IMG/VR virus record: IMGVR_UViG_3300046740_000431
Location: 1-64,000 of that record
Length of the DNA stretch: 64,000 bases
Direction: 5' to 3' (one strand)
Source: a virus
Shown here in pieces: positions 2,734-59,926 of this stretch; the first letter of the stretch is position 1, and each line of letters starts with the position of its first letter. The position numbers were made by a program, and so were the translations under genes. Below the pieces are notes generated by a model. That model saw only the letters and a program-made list of their open reading frames with translations, was not told where the DNA came from and made no database searches.

Positions 2734-2753
2734 TCACCGCGCAGGGATGCTGG

Positions 2754-4181
2754 TCACTCGCTGTGGATGATCTCGCACACCCGCTTGAACGCCGCCGCAT
2801 CGCCGGTCGCCCCGTCGGTGCGGACCACGAAGTCCCCCATGAAGCTCCAGGTGTTCGCGACGTTCTGCTGCAGGCGGTCGATCGGCGCGCGCTGGATGAC
2901 GCGGATCCGGTCGACGTCGATCTGGACGCCGTTGTTGACGATCGTGGCGCCCTTGGAGACGCGCCCGGTGATGCCGGCCTCGGTCTCGAGGGCGCTCTGG
3001 TCGGCGAAGTACTCCTTCAGGGCCTCGCCGCCGATCGCGATGGCGCGGTGGACGCGCGCGCCGGTGGACGCGTTGCCGTTCGAGAACAGCTCGCCGGCCA
3101 GCGGGTCCAACGCGGTGAACGTCGCAGACGTCCCGCCCTCGACGTTCTCGGGGACCGGGTTCTCGTTGTTCCGGTAGAACGTGCAGCCGAGCAGCCTGTT
3201 GATCACGAAGTCGCCGTAGCTGATCGCCTCGCTCGGACCGACGCCAGCGGTACCGCGCGTGAGCTGCTGGACCTCGGAGTCGGCGAACAGCTGCGTCTCG
3301 CCGATCGGGTCGAGGTGGAAGTGGTAGGTGCCGTCCGAGCAGTTCGGCACGTTGCTGACGCGCAGGCGAGCGATGGCCGAGCGGATGTCGGCCAGGTGGA
3401 GGATGTCGGTGCCCGGGGTGAGCGCGTCGGTCGCATTGCCGCCGCCGACGATCACGCGGAACGAGCGCGTCGACGCGAACACCGGGTCGCGGTCGGCGAC
3501 GGTGATCGCCGTGTCGATCGTGATGGTGCCGGGTCCGATCTCGTCGCCGGGGACGGCCGGGGTGAACCCGGTGACGTTCACGACGATCGCGCCGCCGACC
3601 GTGCGGACGACGGTGATCGGCAGCGGGTTGTTCGCGGTCACCAGGTCGTAGCGGACCTGCGAGCCGAGGGTCAGATCGGGACGACGAACGCGCGTGAGCC
3701 CGTTGAGGCGCTTCACGGCGAGCGAGGTCACGGTGGTCTGCGCGCCGTCGGCGACCGTCCACCCGGACTCGGCGGCGTTGAACAGCTTGTACCGGTTGAT
3801 CCGGTTCAGCGTCTGGCCGGCGTTGAGGCCGAGCTGCTTCATGTCCTCGGTCAGCTTGTTGACCGCCGCCACGAACGCCGTCGGCAGGTTCGTGTCGATC
3901 GTGTCGGTCCACTGCTGCATCGTCGCGGACCACTGCTCGAGCTTGTAGTCGCTCGGCTGCGGGTCCTGCCCGGGGACGATCGGGATCAGCTTGGGCTTGA
4001 TCAAGCCCTTGCCGGTGAACGTCTTGTTGTCGCCGACGTTGGCGGCCCACTGCTCGGGCATCGACTCCGCCCGGAACAGGTTCTCGGGGTAGAGACCATC
4101 CGAGAAGAAGCGGTCCAGGGCGTTCTCCTGGACCAGGGATCGGTACTGCGAGCTCTGGAGAATGACTGAATAGTCGGCCAT
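2754..4181 (-). CDS. Major capsid protein (HK97 fold)
   Basis: 475 aa after a scaffold-like gene; strong SD AAGGAG; DIRSAIARLR..NVP..SDGTYHFHLDP and C-terminal DRLQQ...TWSF features. Confidence 0.8.
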   Translation of the reverse strand: MADYSVILQSSQYRSLVQENALDRFFSDGLYPENLFRAESMPEQWAANVGDNKTFTGKGLIKPKLIPIVPGQDPQPSDYKLEQWSATMQQWTDTIDTNLPTAFVAAVNKLTEDMKQLGLNAGQTLNRINRYKLFNAAESGWTVADGAQTTVTSLAVKRLNGLTRVRRPDLTLGSQVRYDLVTANNPLPITVVRTVGGAIVVNVTGFTPAVPGDEIGPGTITIDTAITVADRDPVFASTRSFRVIVGGGNATDALTPGTDILHLADIRSAIARLRVSNVPNCSDGTYHFHLDPIGETQLFADSEVQQLTRGTAGVGPSEAISYGDFVINRLLGCTFYRNNENPVPENVEGGTSATFTALDPLAGELFSNGNASTGARVHRAIAIGGEALKEYFADQSALETEAGITGRVSKGATIVNNGVQIDVDRIRVIQRAPIDRLQQNVANTWSFMGDFVVRTDGATGDAAAFKRVCEIIHSE

Positions 4182-55740: not shown

Positions 55741-56130
55741 TCACGCCTCGCCTCGGATCTCTCGGAGCTTGACCTCGAGCTTGGCGCGATGCTCGTAAGC
55801 TTCGGCGATCCGCTCCTCGATGGTCGCTCGAGCGGTCTCCAGCCGGACGATGTCAGCGCTGATTGCGTCGCGCGCCTCACGAACCGCCGCCGCCTCGGAG
55901 ATGTTCTCCTCTGACCTGCCCGGCGCCGGCCGCGCCATCGAGACCGCATCGGTGATCCGCGGCACGAGCGAGCTGGACTTCGCCTTGGTCAGGACGTGGC
56001 CGACGGCGGCGTGCGAGGTCCCGGCCGCTCGCGCGACGTCGGCGATCGAGAGGCCGGCGTCCTTCATCCTCGCGATGACGCTCGAGCGCCACTCCTCGGT
56101 GACCGGGTGATCGGAGATCGCGTGGATCAC
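55741..56130 (-). CDS. XRE/Cro-type HTH protein
   Basis: RMKDAGLSIADVARAAGTSHAAVGHVL. Confidence 0.75.
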   Translation of the reverse strand: MIHAISDHPVTEEWRSSVIARMKDAGLSIADVARAAGTSHAAVGHVLTKAKSSSLVPRITDAVSMARPAPGRSEENISEAAAVREARDAISADIVRLETARATIEERIAEAYEHRAKLEVKLREIRGEA

Positions 56131-56666
56131 GTTGACCTCGCCGTGAACGTGTACGCGTGGACCATCGGGTTGTTCTCGACCTGGTCAGGCCATCGGTGAA
56201 TCGTGTCCCACGCGGCAAGGTAGGACGCCTGCGGGTCCTCGTGGGAGACGCCCGCGAGGTGAGCGCAGCGGAAGATCTCGGCGCCGTCGAGCTGGCCGTC
56301 GATGACCTCGATGCCCTCAGCCCACGCGTCGGACGCGGTGATCTCGCGGAGCCGCTGGGTGCGGACCTCGGCGATCGTGATGTGGTACCGCGCCGCCCAC
56401 CCCGGCATGAACAGCGGGATACGCCACTTCCGCTGCGTCGGATCGGCCGTCCCGTCGTCCTGGTCCTGTCGGTAGAGCACGGCGCCGCGCTCCTCTTGGT
56501 ACAGGTACTCGTTGCCGCCGACGTAGTCCCACGCCTCCTTCGCGTAAAGCGTCTCGCCTACCTTGTAGCGCGGAGACGCGCCGTTCTTGGCCACTCGCCT
56601 GGTCTGCGTCTTCACCCGGCGCTTGAGCCCGAGGATCGACTCGGCCGTGAAGATGATGCCCTTCAC
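56127..56666 (-). CDS. ASCH/PUA-like protein
   Basis: KTQTRR, W.IPLFMP.WAAR and QRL.EIT..DA.AEG. Confidence 0.75.
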   Translation of the reverse strand: MKGIIFTAESILGLKRRVKTQTRRVAKNGASPRYKVGETLYAKEAWDYVGGNEYLYQEERGAVLYRQDQDDGTADPTQRKWRIPLFMPGWAARYHITIAEVRTQRLREITASDAWAEGIEVIDGQLDGAEIFRCAHLAGVSHEDPQASYLAAWDTIHRWPDQVENNPMVHAYTFTARST

Positions 56667-56949
56667 GGCAACCCCATGGCGTCGGCGATCAGGTTGCCGA
56701 GGAGAGCACGGCTGTAGCGATCAGCGATCGTCGTGACCGCCGGCCGCGTAGAGCACCCGGCGCATGTCTCAGGCGCGGCGCAGACGGCGGTTGCCTGCGC
56801 GCCGGTGGTCGCGGCGACGTGGCGGACGATCTCGTCCACGAACAGCTGGCGCTTGAGCTTCCTCCGCGGTCTCGAGATCGCGCGCTTCTCGCGCTGCTCG
56901 CGGAGCGCGATGGCCCGAGCGGCGGTCTCCTTGCTGGTGGACCGGCGCA

Positions 56950-57462
56950 TCAGATCCGCACCTGCGCGGCGACAGCGAGCTCGACATCAGGCGGCAACGT
57001 CCAGAAGCCGAGCGCGCCGCGGCACGGCACCGGCTTGGCCAGCGCGCGGACGTCGCGCAGTACGTAGCCGACTGGGCCGAAGAACCACCGGCGCTGCTCG
57101 CCGAGGTGGCGATCGATCTCGTTTGCGAGCAGACCGGTCGAGTCGAACACGATGCTGTCGATCGTGGCGACCGCGATCACCGCGCTGGTGATGCGGGACA
57201 GCCGGTACCACCGTTGCCACTCGGTCTGCTCTGGATCTCCCCATCCATGAAACATCCGGTTCGCCTCGGTGGGGCCATCGGAGACGCCGACGATCTCCTT
57301 GATGCGATCGTAGACCGACTCGTCGATCTCGCGGCTCGCGTGGATCGCGAACGGCTTCCCGAAGTCGACCGCATTGATCATTTTACGCGGGCGGTTCTCG
57401 ACCAGCTTCACCGAAGAGGCCACCAAGCCGGCCCATGGTTGCGTTAGCGTCAGCGCCCTCAT
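56950..57462 (-). CDS. ASCH-domain protein (with a recoded 5' end)
   Basis: MRALTLTQPWA...K.VENR, AIHAS and PVPCRGALGFW. Confidence 0.88.
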   Translation of the reverse strand: MRALTLTQPWAGLVASSVKLVENRPRKMINAVDFGKPFAIHASREIDESVYDRIKEIVGVSDGPTEANRMFHGWGDPEQTEWQRWYRLSRITSAVIAVATIDSIVFDSTGLLANEIDRHLGEQRRWFFGPVGYVLRDVRALAKPVPCRGALGFWTLPPDVELAVAAQVRI

Positions 57463-58124
57463 CGCGAGCTCTCCTGAAGATATTTGATTGCCGAGCGCAA
57501 GTGTACGACGTCGTCTCGGAATACTCCGATTCCGGTGTTGCACCGGTAGCATAGGAGACCGCGAACGATGCCGGTGACGTGATCGTGATCCACGTGAAAC
57601 CGACGCGGTGACTCGGTGGATAGGAGTCGGCAGATCGCGCACCGACCTCCCTGATTGACGAGCATCTCGTCGTATCGCTCGATGGTGAGTCCGAATTTCT
57701 TACGAAGGTGATGTCCCCAGCGCTGTCGATCCCACTCCTTGGGGTGCTGGGCAGCCCACGCCTTCGACTTCGCGGTCACGCACCTCTTGCAGATGTTTCC
57801 AGCTTCCTTGCCAGCGCTCATTTCGCCAGGAAGCTTGACATCGCAGCACACGCGGCATGTCGTGCGTGCCGCTTCGCGTAGAGGATTCAGGTGATCCGAC
57901 CGGTAAGCGACGCGCGCGGCTCGCTTGGTATCCGCCGGCTCACTTCGCACCCATCCACAGGAACAAGCTACACGCAGACCGCCTGGTGGCGCACGGCGTG
58001 AAACAGTGAACTCACCGATCGACGTGTACGACATCGCGTGACCAGCTAGCACGACCGGACCAAGCGGCTTGATGCCGCTTGCCACGATCCCGGCCCACGG
58101 CTGGGTCAGCGTGAGCGCGCGCAT
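57459..58124 (-). mobile_element. Endonuclease VII-family homing endonuclease fused to the original ASCH start
   Basis: LRKKFGLT..Y..ML..Q..RCAIC, HVDHDH.TG.VRGLLC..CN.GIG.F.DD; visibly lower GC than the flanks. Confidence 0.85.
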
Positions 58125-58531
58125 CACGCAGCCTCTGGAAGTCGGTAGGTCCCAGGGGCGCCGGGCTCCATCAGGCGAGCCAGGCTACGGAGCGCGCATA
58201 CCGTGGTGTGCGGCCTGAGCTGCGCCGTGTAGTCGTGCAGCCAGATCGCGCCGTTCACGAGCATGACGCGGCAGAACAGGCAGAAGACGTCGACGCGTTC
58301 CGGGGTCCCGACGATCCGTGCGGTGTCCGGGTTTCCGTCGTAGAACAGCCACGCCGAAGATGCCGGGCAGCCGCGGTGCTTGAACCTGTAGTCCTGCAGC
58401 GCGAGCGCAACCAAATCCATGATCTCGGCGTCGCGCGGGTTGGCGCGCCCGCTGGATACCAGGTCGAGCGCGGTGATCGCGTGCGGTCGAGCGCGCTCGA
58501 TCGCACCCTGCCTTGTTCGCGCGCCCTTCAC
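58124..58531 (-). CDS. Cys-rich hypothetical protein
   Basis: Overlaps with both neighbours. Confidence 0.5.
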   Translation of the reverse strand: MKGARTRQGAIERARPHAITALDLVSSGRANPRDAEIMDLVALALQDYRFKHRGCPASSAWLFYDGNPDTARIVGTPERVDVFCLFCRVMLVNGAIWLHDYTAQLRPHTTVCALRSLARLMEPGAPGTYRLPEAA

Positions 58532-59595
58532 GCTTCCACCTCTGGGAACTCGAGGTGCTGGACGCCGTCGAGGTACGGCATCTCCACGACGCCGCCAGGC
58601 TTCCTCTTGGACCCGCTGCCGACCAGCACCGTGCATAGACCACCGCTGTCGTCTGACCGCGATCCCTCTTCGGTCATCTGCTTCAGGAAGAACGCGGTGC
58701 CCGTATGCTTACACTGGTTTCGTAGCCACCTGACCCACAGCGAATCGAGCGGCCTCGCCGCTGCGCCGCTCTCGCACCCGACAATGACCCAGCCGATCCC
58801 GTCAGGGTGTAGCCAGTGCCCGTAGGAGCGTTCGGCATCGCACTCGACGCACCACGGCGTCGCGCCATCGTCGGCAACGCACCATTCGGCTGGTCCGTGG
58901 TTCCGGTCGTCGCAGCGCGGCAGGTCGAGATCGACCTCGCCGAGCAGCGGCTCACAGCTCAGGAACCGAACTGCGGCCGGCGTCGCGAGAAGGTCTGGGA
59001 TGCGCTCCTCGGCGGCGTCCTGGTTCTCAACCGAGACGCCGAGCCATACGTTAGGCAGCGGCCACCCGTTGTCGAGGCCACGACTTGGGATTGAGTCCAC
59101 GACACCGTCGAGTGCATATAGTGCGGCGTTCTCGATTAGCTCTCTCGGTGGCAAAGCCGGCCTCGCAAGCAGAGCGCGCCCGGTCGGGTTCGCCCACGCG
59201 AACCACTCGCGCATCCGCTTCGGGCGCTTCGTGAGCACCTGGAAGGTGTGCTGCGGACAGGCCGCCATGACCCCGAATACGGCGGCGATCTGCTCGTTCG
59301 TGAACGCGTCGAAGAACAGGTCGCTCATCGAGTCGACGAAGATTTTGCGCGGTGCCCGCCATCGCAGCGGCATAGCTAGCGCGTCGGTGTCAAACAGCCC
59401 CTCTCCGGTCCAACACGGGTCGCCGCCTGGCCCGAGCTTCACTAGGCTGTCGTACTTCGTGGGTTTGCCCTTGGCCATGCGCACGATCCGAGCGGCCTGG
59501 TGCTTCGCGTAGCAGTTGCGACACCCAGGCGAGACCTGCGCGCACCCCTTCGTAGGGTTCCACGTCTCGCCGGTCCAGGAGATCTTCGTCGGCAT
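58528..59595 (-). CDS. DUF5131 / Gp37-Gp68 radical-SAM-like protein
   Basis: TWNPTKGCAQVSPGCRNCYA, SMSDLF, LTKRP, NVWLGVSVENQ, FLSCEPLL and FFLKQ. Confidence 0.9.
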   Translation of the reverse strand: MPTKISWTGETWNPTKGCAQVSPGCRNCYAKHQAARIVRMAKGKPTKYDSLVKLGPGGDPCWTGEGLFDTDALAMPLRWRAPRKIFVDSMSDLFFDAFTNEQIAAVFGVMAACPQHTFQVLTKRPKRMREWFAWANPTGRALLARPALPPRELIENAALYALDGVVDSIPSRGLDNGWPLPNVWLGVSVENQDAAEERIPDLLATPAAVRFLSCEPLLGEVDLDLPRCDDRNHGPAEWCVADDGATPWCVECDAERSYGHWLHPDGIGWVIVGCESGAAARPLDSLWVRWLRNQCKHTGTAFFLKQMTEEGSRSDDSGGLCTVLVGSGSKRKPGGVVEMPYLDGVQHLEFPEVEA

Positions 59596-59926
59596 CAGTC
59601 CTGCTCCCTGACTACCTGCCTGCAGCAGTCGCACCTTTGCTCAACTCCGATGGTAGCTACCGTTCTTTCGTCGAAAAGAACCACCAACCGAACCGACCGG
59701 ATCCAGAGATCCGGATCGGGATCCGGCGGCGAGAACTCGACGATCACGCGCCTGGGGTCGTCCCAGAACTCGGTGTCACCGATCGTCACGAGCGACTTCG
59801 GATCTTGGCGGTATCGATCACTCGCGATCGACATGGCGACGTCGAGCGACGGGATTCCGCGCATGGTCGCGCTGTATCCGTCGTGCAAGTAGAAGGTCTG
59901 GAACCTGATCATCAGTCCTGCTCCCT
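59593..59926 (-). repeat. 17-bp direct repeats flanking a 105-aa hypothetical gene (59595-59912)
   Basis: AGGGAGCAGGACTGATG at 59593-59609 and 59910-59926; both genes end REQD. Confidence 0.75.

Follow-up and report, generated by a model that had tools for sequence, protein, structure and literature searches.

How can a homing endonuclease gene lie inside the coding sequence of another gene and leave that gene complete? To our knowledge, such genes are thought to enter a coding sequence safely only with an intron, with an intein or in a split gene that reassembles. The question is raised by the IMG/VR virus record IMGVR_UViG_3300046740_000431, in which an open reading frame (ORF) for an Endonuclease VII-type nuclease is directly followed by an ORF for an ASCH-like protein, both opening with nearly the same 19 residues. 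The window analyzed here corresponds to the first 64 kb (64,000 nucleotides) of this 92,026-base record (G+C content 68.7%). We argue below that the nuclease gene is probably a free-standing homing gene located inside the 5' end of the ASCH-like gene, a position that it would have reached by duplication of the gene end, without intron or intein.

Two Copies of One Gene Start

The nuclease ORF begins with MRALTLTQPWAGIVASGIK and the ASCH-like ORF with MRALTLTQPWAGLVASSVK. The initial annotation had reported 16 identical residues out of 19, with 9 codons differing synonymously, and a recount by codon table gave the same figures; three further codons carry replacement differences, and the two copies are identical at 38 of 57 bases. 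The upstream 19 codons were recovered both when the ASCH-like protein was compared with all six frames of the entire record (E = 4.3e-5) and by a hidden Markov model (HMM) of the ASCH-like family, built from 119 proteins and run on 268 Endonuclease VII proteins (E = 1.9e-9). With such values, the match of the two starts is not due to chance. The local genes are tightly packed and all on the minus strand, and the parts of the locus are the following.

58124..57459, minus strand: Endonuclease VII ORF, 221 amino acids, with its ATG at 58124-58122
58068..58124, minus strand: upstream copy (the "stub") of ASCH-like codons 1-19, now the first 19 codons of the nuclease ORF
58044..58067, minus strand: linker of 8 codons (PLGPVVLA) between the stub and the invariant Gly-His of the nuclease N-terminal module
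57462..58043, minus strand: Endonuclease VII-type body, with a GH...CxCGW module, a CxxC...CxxC zinc ribbon and, at residues 139-218 (57471-57710), the catalytic domain
57459..57475, minus strand: junction signals between nuclease and ASCH-like gene, an AGGAG motif and an ATGA overlap
57462..56950, minus strand: ASCH-like ORF, 170 amino acids, directly 3' of the nuclease ORF and belonging to a large phage family
57406..57462, minus strand: downstream copy of codons 1-19, the present working start of the ASCH-like gene
56950..57405, minus strand: ASCH-like codons 20-170 and stop, the putative resident gene body

The duplication is confined to 57 bases and ends at codon 19. Beyond this codon, no DNA or protein similarity between the two ORFs was detected above shuffled controls, the best local DNA score with the first 57 bases masked being 23 against up to 35 in 200 shuffles. 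The "KP...GHA" that comes after the stub was considered as a second ASCH fragment (KPFAIHAS) and rejected, since in free-standing relatives the nuclease module starts with Gly-His. At codons 16-18, beside the junction, eight of the nine bases differ between the copies and two of the residue changes are rare in the ASCH-like family; a target site that extended across the insertion point would lose its integrity here. At position 13 the downstream copy has Leu, as do 33 of 34 alleles without the nuclease (the last one has Val), and the upstream copy has Ile, which fits a stub freed from the functional constraint on the ASCH-like protein.

Each of the two starts has its own translation signals. 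The nuclease ATG overlaps the TGA stop of the preceding 135-residue ORF (58126-58124) in a TGATG, seven bases after an AGAGG ribosome-binding motif (58136-58132) located in the 3' end of that ORF. The nuclease stop TGA (57461-57459) in turn overlaps the ATG of the ASCH-like gene (57462-57460) in an ATGA, and an AGGAG ribosome-binding motif (57475-57471) lies within the last nuclease codons, eight bases before this ATG. Positions 56000-59600 are reproduced, with zero differences, in an independent Logan contig (7036 bases) of run X1, which is probably the source sample; the layout can therefore not be put down to a misassembly of the record.

A promoter scan found none, and the one terminator-like site inside the ASCH-like gene was no better than chance. 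There was no Rfam match at E <= 1 across 56500-58700, and Pfam gave Endonuclease_7 alone on the nuclease ORF, with no Hint or intein domain. Given that neither a ribozyme family nor a promoter-like site was matched, transcription of the two genes together and without splicing is likely; splicing would in any case be unnecessary, because the second copy of the 19 codons is complete.

The Nuclease and Its Family

The nuclease matched Pfam PF02945 (Endonuclease VII, His-Me finger) with 86.4 bits for a cut-off of 23.6, over residues 139-218 and profile positions 2-81 of 82, and the PHROG endonuclease VII families at E 6.5e-33. A HMMER scan of 1.84 billion representatives recovered 117 relatives at E <= 1e-30; 28 of the HMMER representatives and 10 matches from another search were read, and 23 members, including the window protein, were aligned (A3). 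In this alignment, C162, C165, D179, H180, H182, C192, C195, and N196 are invariant, which we take, from T4 endonuclease VII, to be the catalytic and zinc-binding residues.

Members of this family are built from a short N-terminus leading to Gly-His, a CxCGW module, a CxxC...CxxC ribbon and the catalytic domain, with G28 invariant and H29 present in at least 90% of the 23 members. Free-standing relatives begin 3-12 residues before Gly-His, which argues that the stub is an addition to the nuclease and not part of its fold family: the window nuclease has 27 residues before Gly-His, 19 of them ASCH-like and 8 in the linker. Pieces identical to the nuclease gene (57495-57649 and 57693-57843) were present in soil run X3, which belongs to another study.

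The HMM run on the 268 nucleases gave the following ASCH matches, the N-terminal stub being present in four of them.

P0124: N-terminal ASCH match, E 2.5e-10
P0121 (the window nuclease): N-terminal ASCH match, E 1.9e-9
P0123: N-terminal ASCH match, E 5.2e-8
P0245: N-terminal ASCH match, truncated, E 0.009
P0125: whole ASCH fused behind the nuclease, E 2.1e-35
P0303: C-terminal ASCH piece at the protein end, E 0.024

In P0121, P0123, and P0124 the join falls directly after Lys19, and the nuclease bodies of these three proteins are just 45-53% identical, P0124 having no CxCGW module. The closest relative, P0122 (54-58%), starts with MDALSIQQP..., which by eye has the look of a decayed stub and was not matched by the HMM. 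P0123 and the ASCH-like protein P0027 are each encoded on a single Logan contig, both times of 6911 bases, and this equal length suggests that they are neighbors. IMG/VR scans with single proteins (P0125, P0246, P0124) returned distant Endonuclease VII genes and bare ASCH starts alone, ASCH neighbors not being screened there.

The same nuclease clade may also be located in the 3' end of ASCH-like genes, as suggested by two protein sequences: P0303, whose residues 178-209 match positions 137-168 of the ASCH HMM (E 0.024), and P0246, which ends with ADVERAVEDQLR, by eye like many ASCH-like proteins. Two more distant relatives, P0296 and P0307, have long in-frame leaders sharing TLYWWYN just before the nuclease start MKNGRALKGH, and P0296 begins with MKGLSLRQP..., recalling an ASCH start; these leaders may be read-through of conserved non-coding DNA.

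The layout seen in the window was also recovered with other target genes. The scan for the nuclease with alignment A2 provided the best 80 of 599 stretches, and among these 80 viral Endonuclease VII loci two (L094 and L100) had a nuclease gene opening with a copy of the start of the next gene. The screen for duplicated ends was crude and its hits were mostly low-complexity noise and off-frame translations of GC-rich DNA; L094 and L100 were kept after reading, so 2/80 is a floor and not a rate. In L094 (IMGVR_UViG_3300029942_000038; region 295-1000), the first 21 codons or so (MAISGRFQTGQSGNPNGRPKK) of a short Endonuclease VII gene (295-672) are a repeat of the start of the gene that follows, which is small-terminase-like, starts at 681 and contains ...GVSGNPSGRPKK; over SGNP.GRPKK the copies match, by eye, at 9 of 10 residues and 22 of 30 bases. 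In L100 (IMGVR_UViG_2508501126_000001; region 2734-3400), the Endonuclease VII gene (2734-3249) starts with MPIGSHHSA and the next gene with MTIGSHHSA at 3246, with 16 of 27 bases alike and an ATGA overlap between the two genes. The second gene of L100 carries DPCAP and NPPY motifs, is methyltransferase-like and has an in-frame stop about 43 codons in.

Alleles Without the Nuclease

The ASCH scans, performed with an alignment of 24 ASCH-like proteins, yielded 76 loci, of which 33 were viral, 39 came from metagenomes and 4 from genomes. In none of them did tblastn detect a nuclease beside the ASCH-like gene, and the 19-residue stub matched ASCH starts alone; no ASCH/nuclease pair was present among the loci of the nuclease scan either (best 80 of 599 stretches). 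For the comparison by bases we retained the 34 loci with a full readable start, leaving out the duplicates L004, L126, L137, and L145, partial matches and distant members. At one and the same site, the nuclease is absent from all 34 of these alleles and present, joined at Lys19, in the window, P0123, and P0124.

Of these empty alleles, 27 were nearer in bases to the upstream copy, six were nearer to the downstream copy and one was tied, the mean identity being 42.8/57 to the former and 38.8/57 to the latter. The alleles nearest to the window in the gap-free codons 20-56 were L134, L116, L120, and L125 (identity 0.83-0.86), whose starts were 0.81-0.84 identical to the upstream copy and 0.63-0.77 to the downstream copy. 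L134 and L125 also share the start context of the upstream copy, TGATG followed by CGC. The genes upstream of the ASCH-like gene vary widely among alleles. The expectation of the initial annotation that nuclease-free alleles would match the upstream copy was thus borne out in part, by 27 of 34 alleles and by the four nearest ones, but the nearest allele has 72% protein identity and codon bias confounds the comparison. In soil run X2 we recovered pieces identical to the ASCH side of the locus (56573-56797 and 56880-57030) and almost no depth from about 57331 to 58298, a gap that proves nothing because the depth of this run is merely 2-4.

Codon Usage of the Two Copies

Codon shares among synonyms were computed on a rough set comprising 81 ORFs of the 92-kb record, and the reference gene set for the codon adaptation index (CAI) was pre-filtered for G+C at third codon positions (GC3) above 0.75. 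The initial annotation had set atypical downstream codons against genome-typical upstream ones, and the shares agree with this: the downstream copy uses AGG (0.127), CTA (0.024), CAA (0.077), CCA (0.113), TTG (0.061), and TCT (0.055), and the upstream copy uses common codons save GCA (0.075) and GGG (0.25). The four parts of the locus gave the following values, for a genome CAI of mean 0.685 and standard deviation 0.086.

Upstream stub: CAI 0.80, GC3 0.95
Nuclease codons 20-221, including the linker: CAI 0.43, GC3 0.64
Downstream copy: CAI 0.43, GC3 0.79
ASCH-like codons 20-170: CAI 0.69, GC3 0.87

This composition agrees with a foreign origin of the nuclease body and the replacement start as one segment. 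The further statement that the downstream copy had been recoded proved too strong. The codon differences are real, but the ATGA overlap between the nuclease stop and the ASCH-like start demands a codon 2 starting with A and thereby imposes AGG, and rare 5' codons are common in empty alleles. These alleles fall into two start classes, TGATG with CGC or ATGA with AGG or AGA, the ATGA class being seen, for instance, in L120 and L155. The downstream copy is about equally distant from the upstream copy (38/57) and from the other alleles (mean 38.8/57); deliberate recoding is not needed, because import from a diverged allele accounts for this distance, and a diverged allele carried by the element is the simplest origin of the replacement start.

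The ASCH-Like Protein and the Neighboring Genes

The ASCH-like protein had 597 relatives at E <= 0.001 and matched PHROG 3193 at E 5.3e-32. It aligns over the full length of the family (residues 1-170) and keeps all the invariant columns of alignment A1, the N-terminal motif being the most conserved part of these proteins. No Pfam family was matched at E <= 10, and hence not PF04266. When the family profile was compared with PDB sequences, the eight best matches were all ASCH proteins (EOLA1/CXorf40, ASC-1), weak (E 0.022-0.24) and limited to the first 22-40 residues; in a language-model atlas, the nearest named clusters of the homologue P0002 (72% identical) were ASCH or EOLA-like, with a score of 0.95. 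"ASCH-like" is plausible as a label, not as a statement of family membership, and the main argument is independent of it. The public gene call for this gene (P0001, 158 amino acids) begins at Leu13 (TTG) instead of the ATG overlapping the stop of the nuclease ORF, so that the duplication goes unseen in automatic annotation.

Among GenBank phages, tblastn with the ASCH-like protein matched Rhizobium phage RR1-A alone (two accessions, 28.5% identical). Two metagenome loci, L144 (2432-2832) and L145 (1621-2021), match the window protein at residues 1-58 and 122-168 only, with the matched pieces 86 bases apart, versus 63 codons in the window; the variable middle of these alleles is much shorter or replaced. 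Among species-representative genomes, the sole related genes (39-60% identity) pointing to a host are those of L155 and L157, from metagenome-assembled genomes (MAGs) labeled Kofleriaceae and Haliangiales; one more lies in a MAG labeled Moraxellaceae. The MAG labels hint at a host in Myxococcota, which we did not count as evidence.

The genes on either side are the following.

59634..58528, minus strand: DUF5131 gene (Pfam, 258 bits)
58531..58124, minus strand: 135-residue ORF of unknown function, the 5' neighbor of the nuclease, whose sequence was read
Beyond the ASCH-like gene, minus strand: ORFs of 95 and 179 residues, the latter at 56127-56666

The 135-residue ORF had no Pfam or PHROG match at the thresholds used, its single weak match (DUF6596, E 0.022) being under the cut-off. 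The 179-residue ORF matches PHROG 874 (E 7e-24), and a relative of it is fused before the ASCH-like domain in the 412-residue protein P0243, which hints that the products of this ORF and of the ASCH-like gene work together.

Discussion

What the initial annotation had proposed for the architecture of this locus is well supported by the sequences compared here. The putative insertion lies at codon 19/20, where the duplication ends and where P0123 and P0124 have the same Lys19 join. The nuclease appears to use the original start, given the TGATG overlap and the CGC at codon 2 that are also found in L134 and L125. The ASCH-like gene behind the nuclease would have been restored with a replacement 5' end, as it is complete and possesses a second copy of codons 1-19. 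Finally, the arrangement can be called splicing-free, because no ribozyme was found and Pfam gives Endonuclease_7 alone. We infer from this that the stub represents the start that the gene had originally and serves as left homology arm, and that the downstream copy is the replacement end brought by the element, whose cassette would span 662 bases (58067 down to 57406).

The native 19 codons would supply the start codon, the ribosome-binding context and an N-terminal tag to the nuclease, which would thus be made from its target gene's own start signals, and the whole ASCH-like protein would be made by coupled translation at the ATGA, with the AGGAG in the last nuclease codons. In a mixed infection, the enzyme would cut nuclease-free alleles near the conserved DNA for ...VASGIK|LVENRPR..., around codon 19/20, and the break would be repaired from the occupied allele, copying the nuclease body together with the replacement start. 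The upstream stub would serve as left homology arm and the gene body as right arm; flanking synteny would then be irrelevant, because both arms lie inside the conserved gene. As the upstream genes differ widely among alleles, the 57-base stub would be the sole dependable left arm, and this would be the reason for a consensus-like stub and a dissimilar replacement copy. The occupied allele would be protected by the splitting of the site and by the 8/9 base differences of the replacement copy before the junction. The divergence of the two copies (38/57) would also curb loss of the element by recombination between them.

Several observations weigh against this interpretation. We found no near-identical phage with an empty site, the nearest empty allele having 72% protein identity, and no contig bridging an empty junction in the three soil runs (X1, X2, X3). 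The likeness of the empty alleles to the upstream copy could come from a shared GC-rich codon bias alone. The other stub-bearing nucleases are known as proteins alone, and the fact that their stubs are in frame is not countable as evidence, since stubs are detectable solely when in frame. The low CAI of the replacement copy is weak evidence, not significant over 19 codons: values as low occur in 6.3% of 1178 windows of 19 codons and in 22% of the 81 crude gene starts. The codons that make this copy look foreign are moreover frequent in empty alleles, with AGG or AGA at codon 2 in 16/34, CAA at codon 8 in 10/34 and CCA at codon 9 in 6/34.

The same facts bear on the opposite assignment of the two copies, with the downstream end as the resident one and the stub as a relic of an earlier host gene, carried by an element that landed just upstream of the ASCH start. 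Co-conversion after homing can replace either flank, so that neither copy need be resident, and the ATGA start with AGG belongs to a common class; with the CAI so uninformative over 19 codons, and with P0125 sitting before a whole ASCH without recognizable stub, such a history has some basis. We nevertheless consider it unlikely, because the alleles nearest in the gene body fit the upstream copy better (0.81-0.84 versus 0.63-0.77), because the upstream copy has the codon style of the genome and of the gene body and the downstream copy that of the nuclease, and because L134 and L125, which are among the four nearest alleles, open in the same start context as the upstream copy. A one-off rearrangement, in which unequal recombination duplicated the 5' end of the ASCH-like gene around an adjoining nuclease gene, would dispense with site-specific homing altogether. 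The repeat is just 57 bases long, P0125 shows that the clade can sit simply upstream of the gene, and the case for homing and cutting is built on sequence, with occupied relatives known as proteins only. Such an accident would hardly explain a Lys19 junction common to three nucleases that are 45-53% identical, or the same design with other genes in L094 and L100, and the copies differ at 19 of 57 bases, like unrelated alleles, which is a poor fit to a recent local duplication; we regard it as quite improbable.

Least credit of all goes to the idea that the N-terminus common to both proteins belongs to the nuclease itself, as a functional or convergent motif, or that the nuclease resides in a group I intron or an intein that splices out. 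It is true that the N-terminal motif is the most conserved in ASCH-like proteins and the sole part matching solved ASCH structures. A motif needed by the nuclease is, however, at odds with a stub in only 4/268 nucleases, with free-standing relatives that have none and with the whole ASCH behind P0125, while splicing finds no counterpart in Rfam (E <= 1) or among Hint and intein domains in Pfam. We would be very surprised if either were correct.

Insertion by gene-end duplication therefore remains the interpretation that we favor, and it can be extended, tentatively and with slightly more doubt than confidence in the extension as a whole. There may be an Endonuclease VII homing lineage that is specialized on one codon boundary of ASCH-like genes and has turned the duplicated end into working parts. 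The stub would act as start and as 57-base left arm, allowing homing between phages that share nothing upstream, and the replacement would be kept dissimilar against self-cutting, unproductive repair and repeat loss. Together with L094 and L100, end replacement would then join introns, inteins and split genes as a fourth route, general and so far unpublished. The window element needs none of these three: it duplicates a short end, takes the start signals and gives a substitute start. If general in phages, this design would explain many odd short N-terminal "fusions" on nuclease genes, as well as late-starting gene calls such as the public call of the ASCH-like gene at codon 13; it would mark recombination boundaries in phage genomes and provide natural pairs of cut and uncut targets, usable for studying the specificity of Endonuclease VII-type enzymes.

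Comparison With Known Systems

The homing endonuclease F-CphI reportedly adjoins its target gene psbA and cuts intron-less alleles, and we know of no report of this enzyme inside an ORF with a duplicated end. In the accessible part of its description, F-CphI of cyanophage S-PM2 has an Endonuclease VII catalytic motif (PMC6083498); a catalytic domain of the type found in the window is thus already used by a free-standing phage homing endonuclease. For phage endonucleases located inside ORFs, the available portion of another account mentions introns, inteins and one split gene (PMC10448857). Split genes are exemplified by the MobA/gene 60 cassette in the topoisomerase gene of T4-like phages and by MobE within nrdA of phage Aeh1 (bioRxiv 10.1101/2022.08.31.505936). 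Like the window nuclease, MobA and MobE as presented there are free-standing phage homing endonucleases in an ORF, accompanied by additional sequence through which the gene remains functional and the occupied allele is shielded from the enzyme; unlike in the window, the host genes are split in two proteins that reassemble through added C- and N-terminal tails, and a 50-base bypass insert gives protection in T4. In the window the gene is left undivided, with a single ORF for the complete protein; it is a short end that occurs twice, and the upstream part amounts to 19 codons. Our literature search, within an incomplete coverage of subscription journals and supplements, yielded no description from phages of an endonuclease accompanied by a second, differently spelled copy of a gene end.

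The surprise is limited, because the principle is already known from fungal mitochondria. The mORF "gene hybrids" occur in atp6 of Allomyces macrogynus and in atp6, atp9, cox2, and nad3 of Glomus sp., where, according to the available sections, the insertion is in the 3' end of the gene and brings a foreign C-terminus, with the native end left downstream (PMC3630166). Two copies of a gene end that flank an endonuclease body and differ more in bases than in protein, the hallmark of these hybrids, are also what we observed in the window. In both cases, as far as that account extends, an endonuclease ORF is located within the end of a conserved gene without intron or intein, a foreign end (in the window, putatively the downstream copy) has been brought and the native one persists beside it. 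The two atp6 copies of Glomus are reported to be 63.5% alike in bases and 91% in protein (PMC3630166), compared with 67% and 84% for the copies in the window. The native end of the hybrids is moreover the one nearer to the homologue in close relatives, and the window leans in the same direction. In the accessible data, the inserted C-termini of Glomus have 64-81% base identity to those of the close relative G. irregulare and the native ones 91-98% (PMC3630166); in the window, the upstream copy is the nearer one for 27 of 34 empty alleles, over 57 bases only and with codon bias as a confounder.

The differences, as far as the same sections allow them to be drawn, concern the affected end, the host and the enzyme. 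The window is a mirror image of the mORFs, with the 5' end affected instead of the 3' end; it belongs to a phage of bacteria and not to an organelle, and its nuclease is of the Endonuclease VII type, whereas the atp6 insertion contains a LAGLIDADG ORF (PMC3630166). Finally, unlike in the mORFs described there, the putative native end stranded in the window is no dead fragment, for it gives the nuclease its start codon and its first 19 residues.

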